DNA from: a virus
Direction: 5' to 3' (one strand)
Virus record (IMG/VR): IMGVR_UViG_3300034024_000028
DNA: 17,023 bases
Of the stretch, positions 377 to 9,278 are shown in pieces (positions within the stretch are counted from its first letter, which is position 1; the number at the start of each line of letters is the position of its first letter). A program made the translations under genes and the position numbers. The notes below the pieces were generated by a model that saw only the letters and a list, made by a program, of their open reading frames with translations, made no database searches and was not told the DNA's origin.

Positions 377-982
377 TCACCCCACCCGCCGGGGCCGGGA
401 CAGCCCGGCCAGGGACACCGCGACGTCCGGGTCAAGCTTCGCCAGCAACCGCAGCTCTGATCCGTCCGTGGGAGACCCGGACACCCCGAACGGGGAATCC
501 CGCCGGGCCGCCCACCGGTTCACCTGCAACCGCGCCGCGACCACCACTTGAGCCGGTACCGCGGTCCACCCCCAGCGGGCCACCACAGTCACCGACGCGG
601 GGGCCCCGGCATAGGACAGGTCCGGCCGGTCCGCGAACCCCAGCGCCGTCCAGGGCACGCTGTCGGCCGGCGCGTTGTCCGGCAGCAGCACCGCCCCGGA
701 CGACGCGTACGCCACCCCGCGGACCGTCATCCCCGTGACATCCTGCACGTCGTCGATCGACAGCAGCCACATACCGGTGACCGGGTCGTACACCGCCGGC
801 CGCCGGTACACCCGCGCCGCAGCAGTAGGGGCGATCGTGCCGAACTGACGGTTACAGCGCTTGTCGATGGCCCGGGATGCGGCCGTGACCCAGGTGCCCA
901 CCTGCGCATCATCGATCGAATCGGGCAACCGCAGGAACGCGTTCGCGTCGACAACCGTGATGTAGTCAGGCTTCCAGGGCAC
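377..982 (-). CDS. head-to-tail adaptor (HK97 gp6 / phage_connect_1-like)
   Basis: 201-aa ORF. The N-terminus PDYITVVDANAFLRLPDSIDDAQVGTWVTAASRAIDKRCNRQF matches the typical adaptor opening (y.t..d...yl......dd..l..li.aA...i...tgr.f). The C-terminus has GWTAVPAQVVVAARLQVNRW. It sits downstream of the capsid gene. Confidence 0.7.
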   Translation of the reverse strand: MPWKPDYITVVDANAFLRLPDSIDDAQVGTWVTAASRAIDKRCNRQFGTIAPTAAARVYRRPAVYDPVTGMWLLSIDDVQDVTGMTVRGVAYASSGAVLLPDNAPADSVPWTALGFADRPDLSYAGAPASVTVVARWGWTAVPAQVVVAARLQVNRWAARRDSPFGVSGSPTDGSELRLLAKLDPDVAVSLAGLSRPRRVG

Positions 983-991
983 GGCCGCTAC

Positions 992-1405
992 CTACTCGGA
1001 GTCCGCGGCCGGGCCGCTGATACCCGGGGTGCCCGCGATGGCCGGGTCGATCTCACCCGGGGCCACGGACGGGTAGACGAAATCCACACCGGGCACCGCG
1101 GCCTGCCGCTCCCGGACCGGGATCGGAGTCACCGGCGCCGACGCGTCCGCGATCTGTAGACCGGCCTGCTTGCCGGTGAGCATCCCGCGAACGTCGTCCG
1201 TGGTCACCTGCCGGCCGCCGACGTTGGTCACCCCGAACGACTCGAGGTCCGACAACTGACCCTGCGACAGCACGAACTCGTGCTGCACCGGGGCGGCCAT
1301 GCCGGGACGGCTGGCACCGGCCGCGGCCAGCTGGCCGCGGAGATTCTCATTCTCGGCACGCAGCGCGTCACGCTCCGCGGCGATGTCTTCCTTGGTCTCC
1401 GCCAT
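992..1405 (-). CDS. hypothetical protein with N-terminal coiled coil (possible head decoration/scaffold-like; function unknown)
   Basis: ATG at 1405 is preceded by a perfect AAGGAG (1418..1413) with a 7-nt spacer. The product is MAETKEDIAAERDALRAENENLRGQLAAAG... (137 aa). The longer 151-aa version in the ORF track lacks an RBS. Confidence 0.7.
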   Translation of the reverse strand: MAETKEDIAAERDALRAENENLRGQLAAAGASRPGMAAPVQHEFVLSQGQLSDLESFGVTNVGGRQVTTDDVRGMLTGKQAGLQIADASAPVTPIPVRERQAAVPGVDFVYPSVAPGEIDPAIAGTPGISGPAADSE

Positions 1406-1450
1406 CGCGGATCTCCTTACGTGGCAACGGATTCGGGGTATGTGCACGGG

Positions 1451-1478
1451 GCCGGACGGGGTGGCGGCCCCGTCCGGC
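1451..1478 (-). terminator. stem-loop just downstream of the capsid polyprotein stop (possible attenuator or mRNA-stabilising hairpin)
   Basis: gccggacgggg (1451-1461) is the exact reverse complement of ccccgtccggc (1468-1478): an 11-bp perfect GC-rich stem with a 6-nt loop. It starts 9 nt after the stop at 1487. No U-tract follows. Confidence 0.5.
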
Positions 1479-1486
1479 AGGCCCGG

Positions 1487-2818
1487 TTACGCCGGGTCGT
1501 ACTTGATCTCTCGCGTGCCGGCGAAGTCGATGACACCAAACGCCTTGTAACCCCAGATGCCGATGTCCACCCACGCCACCCGCCATTCGAGGTCGATACG
1601 CTCCGGGGCGGACGCCGCCGCCCAGACCTTGTCCGGGTCGAACGTCCACGACGACGCTTCGACCGTGCCACTGGCGGCCGTGGCCCATGACGGGATCCAC
1701 AGCATCCCGTGCGCGTCGATCGCGGTATAGCCCTCCTGCACCGTGCCGGACGCGTTCATCGGACCGATCTGCGGATACAGGGCCCGGCCGGCGGAGTCCT
1801 TCGCCGCCACCATCGCCTTATACAGGTCGATCTGCGTGAAGACCCGGCGGAAGCGGTTCCCGCCCCGGATGAACTGCAACGGCACCAGAGCCGCCTTGAT
1901 GGCCTGATCCAGTGCCGAGTCCACCGCCAGCGCCGTAATCGTGATGTCCGGGATCGACGCAGACGCCGCCACGAACTGCGCCTGCACGTACGCCTCGAGC
2001 GCTTCGTAGTAGGCACGGACCATCTGACGCCACAGGATGCCGTCCATTGCCGGATTGCCCAGCTGATCGACAGCCTCGCGGAGCACCTCGAGCTTCCCGG
2101 AGACCGGGGTCGGAGTGATGGTCTGCGTGGTGACCGCCATCGCACCCGGGGTCGGCTCGGTGCCGGACACGTGGTCCGCGACCAGGCCGGACGACGAGGA
2201 ATACTTCGGCAGCGTGAACGGCGTGATGTCGTCCAGCGTGCCCTTTTCCACGGCCTGCCACATCGGGTAGCCGTAATCCATCTGATCGACGTACAGGTCC
2301 GGACGCTGACGGTTGGGGTTCAGGCCGGCCACGTTCGTCGGAGTGACCGCGAAGCCATGCGCCGCGGGGTCCGGCTGTGCGGCCAGTGACACCTGACGCG
2401 CACGTTCGATCGGGTCCGCGAAAACCTGACGGATGAAGCCCGAGATCCGATCCTTGGCAGCCTGGTCACCCTGCTTGGCCGCGGCCACCAAGTCCTGCGC
2501 GAAGGAGTGCGTGCCGCGCCGCAGACGACCCTGCGCGTCGAAGACGTACGGGGACGCCTCTGTCACCTGCACCGGGCCGTGGTGCAGCGAGACCGGGGTC
2601 GGCCCGGCCCCCAGCGCCACGGCACCCTGCGCGGCCTGCCACGCCAGGAACGCATTGAACTGCGCCGCCGGATCGGGGCCCGGGACCGGCGCCGGGGTAC
2701 CCGGGACGGGTGGGGGAACGGGGGCCGGGGCCGGGGCCGGGGCCGTTTGCAGTTGGGCAGCGAACGTGGCGCACGCGATGTTGGGCGCGTGCGGCTTGCC
2801 GCAGTGCTGGCAGTGCAC
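1487..2818 (-). CDS. candidate nested in-frame gene: major capsid protein translated from an internal GTG (443 aa)
   Basis: A perfect AGGAGG (2831..2826), a 7-nt spacer (CAATCCC), then an in-frame GTG at 2818..2816 (codon 587). This falls just after the protease domain ends. By contrast, I see no recognisable SD upstream of the ATG at 4576. Confidence 0.4.
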   Translation of the reverse strand: MHCQHCGKPHAPNIACATFAAQLQTAPAPAPAPVPPPVPGTPAPVPGPDPAAQFNAFLAWQAAQGAVALGAGPTPVSLHHGPVQVTEASPYVFDAQGRLRRGTHSFAQDLVAAAKQGDQAAKDRISGFIRQVFADPIERARQVSLAAQPDPAAHGFAVTPTNVAGLNPNRQRPDLYVDQMDYGYPMWQAVEKGTLDDITPFTLPKYSSSSGLVADHVSGTEPTPGAMAVTTQTITPTPVSGKLEVLREAVDQLGNPAMDGILWRQMVRAYYEALEAYVQAQFVAASASIPDITITALAVDSALDQAIKAALVPLQFIRGGNRFRRVFTQIDLYKAMVAAKDSAGRALYPQIGPMNASGTVQEGYTAIDAHGMLWIPSWATAASGTVEASSWTFDPDKVWAAASAPERIDLEWRVAWVDIGIWGYKAFGVIDFAGTREIKYDPA

Positions 2819-4576
2819 GGGATTGCCTCCTGTCATGCTCGCGGCCACTTTGGTCACGCGCGCGTCGTCGAACGATGGCATGTACGTGGTAGACGTCTCG
2901 CGCCACGTCGCGCGGTGCACCTCGATGACACCCTCGTCATCAACCTTGATGTCGTCATCGGCCGGGTCCAGGCTGAAGTCCACGCCCACGGACAACCCGG
3001 AGTAAAGGCCGTGTTCCGCGTCGTAGAGCAGCTGATCCCGCTGCACCTTGGCCGGTGAGCCTTCCGGTCCGTCGAGCACCGCCAGGGCCACAACCGGGCC
3101 GGCCGCGGTATCGGTCACCGACCGGTGAAACCCGACCGGTGTCCCGTGATCCATCAGATGCGCCATGCGGGCCGGCTCTGAGTATTCGAGACTGCCCGGC
3201 ATGAATTTCATCTTCAGGCCGTATTTCGAGGTCACCACGCCGTACGGGACCGCCAGGCCGGTGATCGTGCGCGCCGCCGCGTCGACCTTCGGCGCCGGTG
3301 GCGGGGTGGCGAAGTCGGTCGCGCCGAACCGGTACGCCGCATCACCGGCGTCGAAGCGCACCGCGGCCCGGCCGCCCGCCGTGATCTCGAGCGGTGCGGG
3401 GCCGGTGGCCGCCGCCGGGGCCGGGCCGGACAGCCCAGCCCACCCGCGGATCTCATCTGCGTCCGTCACGCCCATCCCCTTAAGCGCTGCCCAATAGGCA
3501 GCCTGCTCCGCCGGTGAACTCTTGAGGTAGTCGGTGAGGTCGAACCGGGCAGCGTAGCCACGCTTCGTCACGTCACCCATCGACAGCCGATCCGTAAGCG
3601 CGCTCATGTACGGCGCGTACGTCCGGTTGATCTTGTCCTGTTTCTTGTCGACGGAGTTGAAGTACGTCCGCGACGTCACCGCCACCCCGAGATCCTCCGG
3701 GTCCACCCCCATGCCGTTCGCGATGGCCAGGTGTGCCTGTTGCCGGAGCTCTACCAGCGTGAGGTCCCGCGGCGACGGGGCCGTGACGTCCGCACGCTTG
3801 ACCGTGGACGGGATCCACCCGAACGGCCGCGACTGTCGCATCGCACCATACGACGCGAGGAATTCGTCGATGGCGTCGTCACTCAGCGGGTCCGTGTCCA
3901 GGTCATCCGCGTCGGTGAAGAACTCCCGCAGCGCCGGATTGTTGGCGTACATCTCCGTCAGGTTGTCCAGGAGACCGCAGATCCGGATGGCCCTGGCCTG
4001 CGCAGTGAGCAGACCCGGGTTGGGGGAGTCGAAACGGATCATGTCCGCGGCCGGCCACTCTGTCCACCCGCGGCCGTCGTCGAAGTCGACCCACACGTAT
4101 CGATGCGGCCGCAGCGGATCCGACGAGCGCAGACTGCGGGGGGGGTCCAGCTTGACCCGGGCTGGATCGATGCGCTTGACGGACACCGGGTAACCCTCGA
4201 AGTCCCGGCCGGTCACTTGCCACCACGCGACCTGGTCAAAGACGAGATCCTCGATGGTCATCGCCATGTGCAGGACGTTGGGCACGTCCGGGTCGAACTG
4301 CCGGAACAGCGGCGACTCCACCACGTTCAATCCGAGATACAGCCGCAGCGGAAGGGTGCCGACCGAGCACAGCTCATTGCGGCCGCGGAGCACCGCGGCG
4401 ACCTGCAACGCGGACGTCCGGGTCACCGACGTCCCGTCACGCATCGCCGCGATGACCCGGTCCACCGGCCGCGGGGCCGTGTCGAACGTGTGGAGAGGCT
4501 CGAGCTCAAGCGTCATCGGACGGGGCACGCTGAAGACTTCACGCACCATCTGCGCTGCTGCGCTCACCCATCCCAT
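1487..4576 (-). CDS. head morphogenesis polyprotein: HK97-type portal + prohead (S78/U35) protease + HK97-fold major capsid protein in one ORF
   Basis: Uninterrupted 1029-codon ORF.
- Portal (aa ~45-385, nt 3422-4444): TSALQVAAVLRGRNELCSVGTLPLRLY, SPLFRQFDPDVPN, PYMSALTDRLS...TDADEIRGWAGL.
- Protease (aa ~432-575, nt 2852-3283): ITGLAVPYGV, HLMDHGTPVGF (His477, nt 3146-3148), YSGLSVGVDF (Ser529, nt 2990-2992).
- Linker (aa 585-640): Cys cluster and Ala/Pro-rich stretch.
- Capsid region (aa ~640-1029): ends ...IDLEWRVAWVDIGIWGYKAFGVIDFAG.
It lies directly downstream of the large terminase gene. Confidence 0.85.
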   Translation of the reverse strand: MGWVSAAAQMVREVFSVPRPMTLELEPLHTFDTAPRPVDRVIAAMRDGTSVTRTSALQVAAVLRGRNELCSVGTLPLRLYLGLNVVESPLFRQFDPDVPNVLHMAMTIEDLVFDQVAWWQVTGRDFEGYPVSVKRIDPARVKLDPPRSLRSSDPLRPHRYVWVDFDDGRGWTEWPAADMIRFDSPNPGLLTAQARAIRICGLLDNLTEMYANNPALREFFTDADDLDTDPLSDDAIDEFLASYGAMRQSRPFGWIPSTVKRADVTAPSPRDLTLVELRQQAHLAIANGMGVDPEDLGVAVTSRTYFNSVDKKQDKINRTYAPYMSALTDRLSMGDVTKRGYAARFDLTDYLKSSPAEQAAYWAALKGMGVTDADEIRGWAGLSGPAPAAATGPAPLEITAGGRAAVRFDAGDAAYRFGATDFATPPPAPKVDAAARTITGLAVPYGVVTSKYGLKMKFMPGSLEYSEPARMAHLMDHGTPVGFHRSVTDTAAGPVVALAVLDGPEGSPAKVQRDQLLYDAEHGLYSGLSVGVDFSLDPADDDIKVDDEGVIEVHRATWRETSTTYMPSFDDARVTKVAASMTGGNPVHCQHCGKPHAPNIACATFAAQLQTAPAPAPAPVPPPVPGTPAPVPGPDPAAQFNAFLAWQAAQGAVALGAGPTPVSLHHGPVQVTEASPYVFDAQGRLRRGTHSFAQDLVAAAKQGDQAAKDRISGFIRQVFADPIERARQVSLAAQPDPAAHGFAVTPTNVAGLNPNRQRPDLYVDQMDYGYPMWQAVEKGTLDDITPFTLPKYSSSSGLVADHVSGTEPTPGAMAVTTQTITPTPVSGKLEVLREAVDQLGNPAMDGILWRQMVRAYYEALEAYVQAQFVAASASIPDITITALAVDSALDQAIKAALVPLQFIRGGNRFRRVFTQIDLYKAMVAAKDSAGRALYPQIGPMNASGTVQEGYTAIDAHGMLWIPSWATAASGTVEASSWTFDPDKVWAAASAPERIDLEWRVAWVDIGIWGYKAFGVIDFAGTREIKYDPA
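2721..2744. repeat. perfect hexanucleotide tandem repeat (GGGGCC)x4 on the plus strand; encodes APAPAPAP on the minus strand
   Basis: ggggcc ggggcc ggggcc ggggcc at 2721-2744, preceded by further G-runs (gggacgggtgggggaacg). It lies in the linker of the polyprotein gene. Confidence 0.95.
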
Positions 4577-4612
4577 GATCGGCAGTGTACGGCCCCGCGG
4601 CCTGCTTAGACC

Positions 4613-6142
4613 TCAGCCAGGCGGACCAGCGTGCACCCGTGTCGATCTCACCCGCACGGCTGGCATGGTCCGGGCCAGGTACACCGCACCCGCCGCGGCG
4701 TACGCGGCGTCCACGTGACCGCCGCCGGACCGGGCGAACACCCACCCGCCGCCGGCCGCCATCCGTTCGGCGCCGGTGACGTGATCGGTCAGCAGCGGAT
4801 CATCCGAACGAACCAGGGTGCCGCCGGTAACTTCCTTCGCGAACCCCATCACCACGGCTGGCGTATCCTGCCGGATCTCCGCCACCGTCACCCCCCGGGC
4901 CCGATCGACCGGGGTCCGCAACCGGGCCGCCATCGCCGCACCCGGGCCGGCCGGGAACCACCCGGCTGAGCGTGGCCGAACCTTCCGGAGCAGCCCCGGC
5001 CATGCGCGCTCCGCGTCAGAGAGCGCCATCGGCCCGGACCACGCGGCCACCAGCTCTACCCGGACCCGGCCGTCTTCCATCACCTGCGCGGCCGCGGCCG
5101 TGACGTGCGTGCCGTCCGGCGACGCGTCGATGCACAGCGCGATCCTTTTGCGCTCCGGCTGTAGCGGGCCCGGGTCCAGGGTCTTTTCCCATGCCGGGCC
5201 GGACACCGCCGGCCGTAGCACCTTGACCCGGATACACATGCGTTCCGTCTTGAAACCGTTCAGCGCCTCTCCGCCGAGACGCTTTGCCCGGCGGGCCCCG
5301 GCCAGCAGTACCTCGAGGTCCAGGCCGTGGCCCACCCGCGGGTTGGCCTGCAACAGCGCGTCCACGTCTTCCGGGTCCGCGTCATCCGGCGCCGACCACT
5401 CGAGCAGCCCTAGCCGCGGGTCACCCTCCCCGGTTTCGATGAAGTCCCGGGCCGAATCCTGAAGATCATTCAGCACGACGGACCGGGAGTCGCCGGCGTT
5501 GGACAGGGCCCAGATTTGCGCGTCCGGTGGCGAGCATGCCGGCTCGAATGCCTCCCACGCTTCATACGTGCGGTGCATGCGGAGTTCATCCGCGATGCCC
5601 CGGTTGATGGTCAGGGACCGGCCACCCTCCGCGTTGCTTGCCGCGATGAGGTAGCGGTCCCCCGCGTGCGTCCAAGACTCCGTCTCGCCGTTCGTCATCC
5701 GGAACCAGCGCCGTCCCGGCTCGTGGAAGTTGTGCAGGGACGGGGTCCGGCGGACCAGATTGACCGCCTTCAGCCACGACTCTTTCGCGTACTGAAGCTT
5801 CGTCGACGTGCCGAGGATCAGCGGCACGCGCTGCCGGAACTGCCACCACACGGACAGCCCTACAGGGAGCTCCGTCTTGCCGTTCTGCCGGGCCACGATC
5901 ACCAGCAGGATCCGGAACCGCGGCCGGCCGTCTTCGAGCAGCTCCCCGCCGTGGATAGCCGCGAAGCGCTGCCAGGGCAGCATGGGATGCCCGATCTCAT
6001 CCATGTAGTCGAGATACTCAAACCCGTACGACGTCTCCGGGGTGAGCTCCCGCAGGGGCGGAGTCCACACCCGCGGCGTGGCCCGGCCCAGCACCGGGCC
6101 GGACCCGGGAAGACCCGGCCGGACCACGTCGAGAATCGTCAC
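4613..6142 (-). CDS. terL: terminase large subunit (Terminase_1 / HK97-like)
   Basis: 509 aa. It has LPWQRFAAIHGGEL, a Walker A-like VIVARQNGKTE, a Walker B-like INRGIADELRMH, and a C-terminal nuclease-type region (IALCIDASPDG...). GTG start at 6142. It is followed by the portal-containing ORF. Confidence 0.9.
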   Translation of the reverse strand: MTILDVVRPGLPGSGPVLGRATPRVWTPPLRELTPETSYGFEYLDYMDEIGHPMLPWQRFAAIHGGELLEDGRPRFRILLVIVARQNGKTELPVGLSVWWQFRQRVPLILGTSTKLQYAKESWLKAVNLVRRTPSLHNFHEPGRRWFRMTNGETESWTHAGDRYLIAASNAEGGRSLTINRGIADELRMHRTYEAWEAFEPACSPPDAQIWALSNAGDSRSVVLNDLQDSARDFIETGEGDPRLGLLEWSAPDDADPEDVDALLQANPRVGHGLDLEVLLAGARRAKRLGGEALNGFKTERMCIRVKVLRPAVSGPAWEKTLDPGPLQPERKRIALCIDASPDGTHVTAAAAQVMEDGRVRVELVAAWSGPMALSDAERAWPGLLRKVRPRSAGWFPAGPGAAMAARLRTPVDRARGVTVAEIRQDTPAVVMGFAKEVTGGTLVRSDDPLLTDHVTGAERMAAGGGWVFARSGGGHVDAAYAAAGAVYLARTMPAVRVRSTRVHAGPPG

Positions 6143-9105: not shown

Positions 9106-9278
9106 CACTCACCCGGCGGACGGCATATCGGGCAGTCCAGACACGTTTGACCATCGTGAGGATGTACGCCGTGCCCCGGACACGGTGGCACCACGAGCCA
9201 CCCCCGCTCCGCCAGCCGTTGCGCGATGCGCAGGTCTACCATCCGCATCCGCGCTTCTGTCGCCGCTTGAGTCTTCAT
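9105..9278 (-). CDS. hypothetical 57-aa protein with a C-terminal four-Cys (zinc-ribbon-like) motif; apparently leaderless first gene of the minus-strand array
   Basis: This ORF is not in the supplied track (it is under 60 aa). My translation is MKTQAATEARMRMVDLRIAQRLAERGWLVVPPCPGHGVHPHDGQTCLDCPICRPPGE. It has good GC3 and no SD. The ATG lies 7 nt after a TACGTT -10-like hexamer. Confidence 0.55.
   Translation of the reverse strand: MKTQAATEARMRMVDLRIAQRLAERGWLVVPPCPGHGVHPHDGQTCLDCPICRPPGE

Follow-up and report, generated by a model that had tools for sequence, protein, structure and literature searches.

Results

One reading frame encodes portal, protease and capsid domains

The window analyzed here is the whole 17,023-nt stretch of viral DNA in IMG/VR record IMGVR_UViG_3300034024_000028. 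On its minus strand, the ORF 4576..1487 encodes 1029 amino acids plus a stop codon and unites the portal, the head protease and the capsid protein of a small actinobacterial phage from soil in a single gene of 1029 codons. The features of the locus are listed below in the direction of transcription.

4613..6142, minus strand: large terminase gene (terL), upstream; phrog_9, E 1.2e-57; 36 nt separate its stop from the portal ATG
4584..4589, minus strand: -10-like hexamer TACACT of the TANNNT type, separated by 7 nt from the portal ATG downstream; predicted to be the promoter for a leaderless late mRNA
1487..4576, minus strand: portal-protease-scaffold-capsid polyprotein ORF, 1029 aa plus stop; ATG at 4576 without a Shine-Dalgarno sequence
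3431..4576, minus strand: HK97-family portal domain, aa 1-382 (Pfam, Foldseek, structure model)
3350..3430, minus strand: disordered linker rich in Pro and Ala, joining portal and protease, aa 383-409; pLDDT <50 for aa 388-409
2834..3349, minus strand: HK97-type prohead protease domain, aa 410-581 (tblastn, phrog_2263, TIGR01543, structure model)
2826..2831, minus strand: internal Shine-Dalgarno sequence AGGAGG, spelled by the rare codons ACA GGA GGC; dG -11.9 kcal/mol
2816..2818, minus strand: GTG at codon 587, in frame, as proposed internal start; separated from the Shine-Dalgarno sequence by the 7-nt spacer CAATCCC at 2825..2819
1487..2818, minus strand: predicted nested scaffold-capsid protein, 443 aa, proposed from the conserved Shine-Dalgarno sequence and start; C-terminus shared with the long ORF
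2771..2812, minus strand: CCHC zinc-knuckle-like motif C589-x2-C592-x3-H596-x5-C602, residues 3-16 of the predicted nested product
2669..2743, minus strand: Pro/Ala-rich flexible linker, aa 612-636; pLDDT <50 for aa 600-636
2261..2668, minus strand: helical region that is scaffold-like or delta-like, together with the N-arm, aa 637-772 (helices of the AlphaFold model)
1490..2260, minus strand: HK97-fold major capsid domain, aa 773-1029 (Pfam PF25209, Foldseek)

The portal assignment draws on several lines of evidence. PF04860 matches aa 72-380 (E 2.8e-14; 53.5 bits against a cut-off of 39.1), Foldseek aligns the domain with 3kdr (TM 0.76, E 2e-14) and also with the HK97 portal 8cez, and aa 50-380 are confident in the AlphaFold model. 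The protease was recognized through tblastn, in which aa 431-586 match the protease half of proteins annotated as 'major capsid and protease fusion', through a match to phrog_2263, and through a weak match to TIGR01543 (aa 471-577, ending at profile position 138 of 142). H477 and S529, the latter within a GLSxG motif, are invariant among the aligned homologues. In the AlphaFold model the protease is confident over aa 410-565, and its last strand (556-565) is followed by a low-confidence linker (566-586). The scaffold-like region contains modeled helices at 636-649, 692-701, 705-720 and 722-733, and the homologous segment in protease-scaffold-capsid fusions has been called a scaffold (PMC7302621). 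PF25209 spans aa 187-433 of the predicted 443-aa product (E 1.7e-5), and Foldseek matches the capsid domain to the capsids of Bxb1, Cozz, GTA and HK97. Pfam gave no match for the protease segment and most other ORFs, a sequence search of the PDB returned noise only, and for the window as a whole Rfam and tRNA scans were empty and megablast against phage genomes found no match.

An internal Shine-Dalgarno sequence and GTG follow the protease domain

Around the junction of protease and capsid regions, the minus strand reads gcgagcATGACAGGAGGCAATCCCGTGCACTGC. As an earlier reading of these letters without database searches (the sequence-only reading) had pointed out, it contains AGGAGG (2831..2826), then CAATCCC, then GTG (2818..2816) as codon 587. 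This GTG is in frame with ATG 4576, as (4576-2818)/3 = 586, and no stop codon intervenes. The same reading had placed the site about 10 codons past the end of the protease, and the domain searches agree: similarity to the fusion proteins stops at aa 580-586, and the TIGR01543 alignment ends at aa 577.

Codon 587 combines complementarity to the 3' end of 16S rRNA with a 7-nt spacing, the two features of a start that depends on a Shine-Dalgarno (SD) sequence. The duplex energy of -11.9 kcal/mol ties for the strongest among the 78 in-frame ATG, GTG and TTG codons of the ORF and is on par with the strongest gene-start SDs of the window, such as that of the major tail protein (-11.5). The mRNA is slightly less structured near the site than elsewhere (z = +0.57). 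AGGAGG is not enriched in the window, with 4 copies against 6.2 expected, so that the hexamer by itself is not significant in one genome. An alternative in-frame start, ATG 2836 (codon 581), was rejected, as it has no SD (-2.8) and its position is not conserved.

Initiation at codon 587 would yield a nested protein of 443 aa. The nested capsid gene proposed in the sequence-only reading is supported with respect to the capsid fold and the shared C-terminus, but the predicted product is more than a bare capsid protein, as it also carries a zinc knuckle, a Pro/Ala linker and a scaffold-like region. The CCHC motif is invariant in 55 aligned homologues and was found at 84 distinct junctions; more distant relatives lack it. 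In the nested product the knuckle is N-terminal, where it might provide nucleic-acid or metal-dependent control.

The long form appears to begin on a leaderless mRNA

The portal ATG is essentially without an SD (duplex dG -1.5 kcal/mol). The sequence-only reading had noted that no SD lies in the 36-nt gap after terL, which is correct, and had taken its absence as a sign of weak initiation, which does not stand in view of a conserved TANNNT-N6-8-ATG/GTG arrangement, the signature of a leaderless start. In 77 of 88 distinct homologues, TANNNT is located 6-8 nt upstream of the start, beginning at -13, -12 or -14. The homologous portal starts invariably have a pyrimidine at -1 and A or G at +1, and their mean SD dG is -1.4. 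Such motifs occur only three times in the whole window, and TACACT at the portal start is one of these occurrences. Actinobacterial leaderless mRNAs transcribed from -10-only promoters share all of these properties (TANNNT 6-8 nt upstream, -1 pyrimidine, +1 purine, no SD), whereas the leaderless start at our locus is predicted from sequence conservation alone. The portal ATG appears to be the 5' end of such a predicted mRNA, and it seems to be without an SD because the start is leaderless. Leaderless initiation in Actinobacteria can be efficient. A scan for E. coli-type promoters and terminators found nothing at the portal start, because -10-only actinobacterial promoters are not modeled by it. 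In the literature searched, we found no description of a head-gene polyprotein as a leaderless cistron.

The internal start signal is conserved across diverse homologues

At least 120 homologues exist, and among the matches listed nearly all are full-length (~1000-1080 aa). Most of the related loci that were fetched contain a continuous ORF and are found on contigs or in prophages of ~17 kb from Micromonospora, Actinoplanes and Salinispora. The junction was compared across 129 distinct homologous ORFs with ~35-96% identity. In 128 of the 129, an in-frame ATG or GTG is found 2-16 codons past the protease-end motif with an SD dG <= -7, and the start codon at the internal site is ATG in 100 homologues and GTG in 29. 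The mean SD dG at the junction is -10.3, compared to -3.3 for 7106 other in-frame ATG/GTG codons, and 125/129 junctions reach dG <= -8, compared to 3.7% of random 15-codon windows; since the homologues are phylogenetically related, p-values overstate their independence, which the diversity of the encoded peptides offsets only in part. A column-by-column scan of the ORF alignment produced a single dominant peak of SD plus start at residues 587/588 (79 + 32 sequences), with a strong SD ahead of every start codon in those columns. Among the 68 homologues that have GGAGG, its spacing to the start is 4, 7 or 10 nt.

The conservation of the SD exceeds what the encoded protein would need, as seen in the rare codons, in a Val that is always GTG and in the retention of the SD across 109 different hexapeptides that precede the internal start. 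Val at the start site is GTG in 29/29 cases (48% elsewhere), the first codon of Gly-Gly is GGA in 69/71 (19/715, or 2.7%, elsewhere), and Thr is encoded by ACA in 43/78 (2.9% elsewhere). The 58 junctions that lack Gly-Gly keep the SD, all with dG <= -7.4. Loss of the hexamer where Gly-Gly is written with other codons, which the sequence-only reading had named as evidence against an internal start, is not the pattern observed: GGA-GGN is used in 69/71, and 58 lineages with other peptides keep an SD. The sequence signals and the domain boundaries are deeply conserved, and synonymous sites within the signals are constrained.

The same internal SD and start are present in relatives in which the portal is a separate gene (L084 and L085), and in the protease-capsid fusions of the cultured phages Decurro, Kels, MasterPitts and Penoan. 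In these four phages the internal start is the best, joint best or second best of the in-frame starts, and the annotated start of the fusion gene has an SD of equal strength. Judged from this presence in relatives and cultured phages with a separate portal gene, the internal start is older than the portal fusion.

One locus (L065) is the only candidate for a natural split at the internal site; it is a single contig whose closest relatives have ~71% nucleotide identity. Two apparent standalone capsid proteins (P0176 and P0198) were rejected: their contigs end 55-58 nt upstream with the upstream frame open, and gene callers choose the homologous Met when upstream sequence is missing. A second internal start was sought at the portal/protease linker, where the alignment scan revealed no consistent column in aa 383-434 and the window has none with dG <= -8. 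Hits around aa 368-373 were discarded as scattered and apparently driven by the amino acids encoded (W/K/E-G codons). Position aa 379 may be an internal start in a distant subclade (11/12).

Discussion

We consider it likely that AGGAGG-N7-GTG is a functional SD-dependent internal start, and that the gene gives rise to a leaderless 1029-aa polyprotein and an SD-driven 443-aa scaffold-capsid protein with a common C-terminus. The conserved signals strongly suggest that the fusion gene also yields the abundant capsid protein as a separate product, from a start within it. We propose that the long form, a 1029-aa portal-protease-scaffold-capsid protein, would be started at ATG 4576 of a leaderless mRNA. 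Binding of the 30S subunit to the internal SD would produce the short form of 443 aa, composed of the zinc knuckle, the flexible linker, the scaffold-like region and the HK97-fold capsid domain. Most of the shell would be built from the short form. The 12 portal subunits would come from the long form, which would also carry the protease into the procapsid in limited amount, tethered covalently to the portal and to one capsid subunit. After entry into the procapsid, the protease would cut the linkers.

We infer the use of the internal site, and the stoichiometry that would result from it, from the sequence; the same applies to the production of both forms, their ratio and their role in assembly. 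More tentatively, it is possible that leaderless 5'-terminal and SD-led internal initiation on one mRNA set the stoichiometry of the virion, with a shell nucleated by the portal and ~12 protease copies per procapsid. Since leaderless initiation can be efficient and the two SDs of the cultured phages are equally strong, signal strength alone is no proof of a 12-to-hundreds ratio.

It is conceivable, if unlikely, that the polyprotein is the sole primary product. The protease would then cut out portal, protease and capsid, surplus portal and protease would be discarded, and the internal SD and start would contribute little. Such a route could draw on an ORF that is continuous and conserved, on a protease with invariant His and Ser and disordered linkers on its flanks, and on the precedent of shorter protease-scaffold-capsid fusions that have been treated as single proteins (PMC7302621, PMC5513430). 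However, it would deliver one portal per capsid subunit where ~1 in 20-35 is needed, and it leaves unexplained an SD and ATG/GTG under synonymous-site constraint in 128/129 lineages. Release of capsid protein from the polyprotein by the protease could in principle occur as well.

We regard it as very improbable that the SD and start survive without function from a capsid gene that was separate in an ancestor and became open to the upstream frame by loss of a stop codon. In HK97-like phages, portal, protease and capsid are as a rule encoded by individual genes, the portal is split from the protease-capsid gene in L084, L085 and L111, and L065 may be split at the internal site. Yet the fused state spans lineages down to ~35% identity and is therefore old. 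Neutral drift in a 69% GC genome would give GGC, ACC and GTC, whereas the rare codons GGA, ACA, CGA and AGA and the start GTG are kept, and the SD has been re-created with different amino acids. A role of the SD-like sequence in elongation, either as a domain-boundary pause for folding or in programmed frameshifting as in dnaX or prfB, deserves equally little credence. The site does coincide exactly with a boundary between domains within the coding sequence, but such a role needs no ATG/GTG at 4-10 nt, and one is always present, with Val always encoded by GTG. Spacers vary in almost every lineage, the downstream codons are variable and include no conserved slippery sequence, and homology continues with both flanks in the same frame, contrary to what a dnaX- or prfB-type site would have. 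Least probable of all, and already largely refuted, is conservation at the protein level only, in which a Gly-Gly hinge plus hydrophobic residue, which might be a site of protease cleavage, would mimic an SD and start: a T-G-G-x-x-[M/V] peptide is indeed conserved in the closest clade, but codon choice is extremely non-random (GGA 97% vs 2.7%, GTG 100% vs 48%), I, L and F never occupy the hydrophobic position, and 58 lineages with an entirely different peptide (REE, QER, DQGD, RKD, KES and others) still keep the SD.

The two-product arrangement that we favor resembles the nested in-frame protease/scaffold genes of phage lambda (C/Nu3), herpes simplex virus (UL26/UL26.5) and phage Mu (I/Z). In these systems, the abundant short form is the assembly-domain part, and the arrangement sets the dose of the protease and targets it into the procapsid. 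The class, to which gp17 of the archaeal virus HFTV1 also belongs, is described in bioRxiv 10.64898/2026.09.13.751334. The parallel to lambda C/Nu3 drawn in the sequence-only reading holds, at the level of the sequence, for a single ORF with two in-frame starts and a common C-terminus, and for a prohead protease in the long form upstream of the internal start (aa 410-581 vs 587). It does not extend to the short form, which here contains the major capsid protein itself rather than a free scaffold. In contrast to the lambda class, the long form also has a portal at its N-terminus, and the two starts are apparently of different mode, one leaderless and 5'-terminal, the other SD-led and internal.

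The small cultured actinophages with protease-capsid fusions are siphovirus-type, with genomes of 15-17 kb and the same gene order as here. Their fusion genes encode a homologous protease (33-36% identity over aa 431-586), have the same order of protease, scaffold-like region and HK97 capsid in one ORF, and contain the same internal SD-ATG after the protease domain. Their portal is a separate gene with an ATGA overlap with the fusion gene, whereas in the window it is fused in frame. Protease-capsid fusions have been published as one fused protein with no mention of an internal start (PMC7302621, PMC5513430), and our literature searches found neither a portal-protease-capsid fusion nor an internal start in protease-capsid fusions. 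HK97 genes 3 (portal), 4 (protease) and 5 (delta domain and capsid) provide the same three functions in the same order, the portal and capsid folds at our locus are of the HK97 family, and the predicted nested product is the counterpart of gp5 in joining an N-terminal assembly domain to the capsid fold. Where HK97 has three separate genes with their own starts, the locus described here has one ORF, and the gp5 equivalent alone keeps its own SD and start.

If true, the proposed scheme would explain how 12 portal, few protease and hundreds of capsid subunits are obtained from one fused ORF, and it would constitute a minimal-genome answer to the 'one portal per capsid' and protease-dosing problems. 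It bears on a stoichiometry problem that 'major capsid and protease fusion' annotations have left open in many cultured actinophages, and it suggests a rule for annotation, namely that a nested capsid CDS be placed at the SD-ATG/GTG after the VAAS motif. The homologues delineate a large and so far undescribed family. Its members are phages and prophages of ~17 kb from Micromonosporaceae and other Actinobacteria, and they encode a portal-protease-capsid polyprotein. Arthrobacter cluster AN and Microbacterium cluster EE phages offer tractable hosts in which portal-nucleated capsid assembly is a testable model, and they could also serve as a model for the tuning of protein ratios by leaderless versus SD-led initiation.

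Domain organization of the polyprotein and its relatives

The 1029-aa product of the minus-strand ORF at 4576..1487 combines a portal domain (aa 72-380; Pfam, above the gathering threshold) with a PHROGs 'major head protein' family spanning aa 430-945 and a Pfam Phage_capsid_4 match at aa 773-1019. By tblastn, aa 431-586 resemble the N-terminal protease half of 'major capsid and protease fusion' proteins from cultured phages of Arthrobacter, Microbacterium and Curtobacterium. A weak NCBIfam match to the HK97 prohead protease ends at aa 577, and H477 and the serine of a GLSxG motif (S529) are invariant across 55 homologues. An AlphaFold model (mean pLDDT 70) contains confident portal (50-380), protease (410-565) and capsid (677-1029) blocks and low-confidence linkers at 388-409, 566-586 and 600-673; Foldseek matched HK97-family portals (TM 0.76) and HK97-fold capsids. 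The remainder of the window, encoding a terminase, head-tail adaptor, major tail protein, tape measure and D5-like primase, is that of a complete small siphovirus-type genome.

The portal-protease-capsid fusion is real. A protein search returned approximately 960 relatives; nearly all of the best 120 are about 1000-1080 aa long, and most of these lie on contigs of about 17 kb. Viral contigs, metagenomes and genomes yielded 192 related loci for comparison, including prophages or episomes of Micromonospora, Actinoplanes, Salinispora, Plantactinospora, Prauserella, Amycolatopsis and Saccharomonospora, and the frame is broken in only a few of them. In L084, L085 and L111 the portal gene is separate and overlaps the protease-capsid gene. 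The copy in L117 (10001-13086, Micromonospora sp. M12 chromosome) carries many frameshifts, with at least 10 frame-shifted pieces, which points either to a prophage in decay or to a long-read assembly full of errors. The sole candidate for a natural split is L065 (3380-3560), which may be divided at the protease/capsid junction: the capsid ORF begins, in a different frame, at a AAGGAAGGA-N7-ATG, and the portal-protease frame stops about 50 nt past this point. Since L065 is a single 7.4-kb metagenomic contig without a close relative, this split may also reflect an assembly error or a defective variant.

A different fusion occurs in L079, where an ORF at 722-3847 (+) joins the portal to a ~650-aa extension in place of the protease-capsid, which forms a separate downstream ORF. 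The extension contains an ADP-ribosyltransferase exoenzyme toxin domain (PF03496, E 2.5e-9). The portal C-terminus thus looks like a site to which capsid-targeted cargo has been attached more than once.

A Shine-Dalgarno sequence and predicted start codon at the protease/capsid junction

The sequence-only reading had proposed that a nested capsid gene starts at a GTG preceded by a Shine-Dalgarno sequence (SD) near the end of the protease. On the minus strand the site reads ...GCG AGC ATG ACA GGA GGC AAT CCC GTG CAC TGC..., and its elements lie in the position and frame claimed:

2831..2826, minus strand: internal SD, AGGAGG
2825..2819, minus strand: spacer from SD to start, CAATCCC
2818..2816, minus strand: predicted internal start GTG, codon 587 of the 1029-codon ORF 4576..1487, in frame with the ATG at 4576

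Its placement near the protease end also holds, since the domain matches and the model set the protease and linker boundaries such that codon 587 lies at the end of the post-protease linker. The predicted duplex with the 16S 3' end has an energy of -11.9 kcal/mol, compared to -1.5 at the portal ATG, and is tied for best among the 78 in-frame ATG, GTG and TTG codons of the ORF. AGGAGG occurs four times in the window against 6.2 expected, and the evidence from the window alone is modest.

Directly after the internal start, an invariant C-x2-C-x3-H-x5-C motif (2771-2812, minus strand; aa 589-602) resembles a CCHC zinc knuckle and would occupy residues 3-16 of the predicted nested product. Members of the closer clade have the motif; distant relatives and the cultured phages lack it.

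Conservation of the predicted internal start and constraint on its nucleotides

Using the conserved protease end FDDARVxxVAAS as an anchor, we extracted 129 distinct homologous ORFs, whose identity to the window ranges from approximately 35 to 96%. Each of the 129 contains, 2-16 codons past the anchor, an in-frame ATG (100) or GTG (29), with an SD energy of -7 kcal/mol or lower in 128; the lone exception, L102, is a false anchor match. Mean SD energy at the junction is -10.3 kcal/mol, compared to -3.3 for 7106 other in-frame ATG/GTG codons, and values of -8 or lower occur at 125 of 129 junctions versus 3.7% of 15-codon windows drawn at random from the same ORFs. A column scan of the whole ORF alignment placed residues 587/588 (79 + 32 sequences) far above all other positions, with a strong SD on every start codon there. 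The sequence-only reading had named loss of the SD where Gly-Gly is kept by other codons as evidence against a nested start; the opposite was found, as the SD and start are conserved beyond coding need.

Codon usage places the constraint, at the level of sequence, on nucleotides rather than the peptide. A valine in the start position is encoded by GTG every time (29/29, versus 48% elsewhere), Gly-Gly begins with the rare GGA codon in 69/71 cases versus 19/715 elsewhere, and threonine at the junction is ACA in 43/78 versus 2.9% elsewhere. GGAGG lies 4, 7 or 10 nt from the start, and mRNA structure near the site is slightly weaker than in the rest of the ORF.

If the 1029-aa polyprotein were the sole source of capsid protein, this synonymous-site constraint would be left without explanation. 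A pause or frameshift element is not favoured, as a slippery site is missing and such an element would not require a start codon. Retention of rare codons over deep divergence is incompatible with an inert relic. Conservation of the peptide only conflicts with the codon statistics and with the 58 junctions that lack Gly-Gly (REE, QER, DQGD, RKD, KES and others), all of which have SD energies of -7.4 or lower. Over the whole set, the start is preceded by 109 different hexapeptides. The comparative evidence for a nested start is strong and supports this interpretation, and the site is quite likely a functional internal start.

In a distant subclade (e.g. L103, L181, L191), 11 of the 12 sequences with a start codon at the end of the portal domain have there an in-frame ATG/GTG preceded by a strong GAGGAGG-type SD. 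This position, equivalent to aa 379 in the window (about 3440-3442, minus strand), where the window itself has none, may be a second nested start yielding protease-capsid.

A leaderless signature at the portal start

The portal ATG, 36 nt past the terL ORF end at 4613, had been described as SD-less, with initiation there suggested to be weak. The first part stands: SD energy is -1.5 kcal/mol, and its absence is common to relatives (mean -1.4 kcal/mol, 90 homologues). The second is better reread as predicted leaderless initiation, which may be weak or efficient, because a conserved TANNNT signature replaces the SD. Among 88 distinct sequences, 77 have TANNNT beginning at -13, -12 or -14, which leaves 6-8 nt between it and the portal ATG/GTG; the base at -1 is invariably a pyrimidine, and the one at +1 is A or G. 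In the window this element is:

4589..4584, minus strand: TACACT, upstream of the portal ATG at 4576-4574

In actinobacterial promoters and leaderless mRNAs, such a signature marks a transcript with the start codon at its very 5' end. The portal start codon is accordingly a predicted 5' end of a leaderless late mRNA. TANNNT-N6-7-Y-[AG]TG occurs three times in the window, once at the portal start.

A second leaderless-type signature, TANNNT-N7-ATG (TACGTTCCTGACCATG; 9276-9278, minus strand), stands at the head of a 57-codon ORF in a region with little annotation (8.8-10.2 kb); the product of this ORF may be a small regulator. In a Pseudonocardiaceae-associated subgroup (L046, L048, L103, L115), a near-palindromic CCGGTATTTCTATACCGGTAT lies 30-40 nt before the portal start, where it overlaps the predicted -10 region; it may be an operator for late-gene control.

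Proposed mechanism and distribution

We propose that a single late mRNA has its 5' end at the portal ATG. Ribosomes entering there would make the full portal-protease-scaffold-capsid polyprotein, and 30S subunits binding the internal SD would make a 443-aa scaffold-capsid protein. The shell would be built from the short form, while the long form would supply the portal dodecamer and bring a limited number of protease domains, tethered via long disordered linkers, with the parts then severed by the protease. Production of both forms, their ratio and their assembly role are what we infer from the observed signals and their conservation.

Nested in-frame protease/scaffold genes are known from lambda, HSV-1 and the archaeal virus HFTV1, the last backed by Ribo-seq (bioRxiv 10.64898/2026.09.13.751334). 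The window's case would work the same way, judged here by sequence signals only. Unlike in that family, its nested product would be the capsid protein itself, its long form includes the portal and its two predicted starts differ in initiation mode. Full-text literature searches found no portal-protease-capsid fusions; protease-scaffold-capsid fusions of small actinophages have been described, in accounts that regard each as a single protein and say nothing of an internal start (PMC5513430, PMC7302621).

Two metagenomic proteins, P0176 (L197 1-60) and P0198 (L198 1-57), start exactly at the homologous internal Met. They are ruled out as standalone capsid genes: their contigs end 55-58 nt upstream of the Met, and the upstream frame is open. 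They show only that a gene caller prefers the site; nested-type capsid entries are therefore already in databases by accident.

The SD-start signal is also present in L084 and L085, where the portal is a separate gene, and in four cultured phages whose hosts belong to three genera:

Arthrobacter phage Decurro: AGGAAAGAGG-cagta-ATG, codon 160
Arthrobacter phage Kels: internal SD-start signal present
Microbacterium phage MasterPitts: internal SD-start signal present
Curtobacterium phage Penoan: internal SD-start signal present

When all in-frame starts of the fusion gene in these phages are ranked, this one comes first, shares first place or comes second. Since the SD at their annotated start matches the internal one in strength, signal strength alone gives no ratio of long to short form. 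Presence of the signal in both separate-portal relatives and cultured phages indicates that the predicted internal start is a trait of the whole protease-scaffold-capsid fusion family and is older than the portal fusion.
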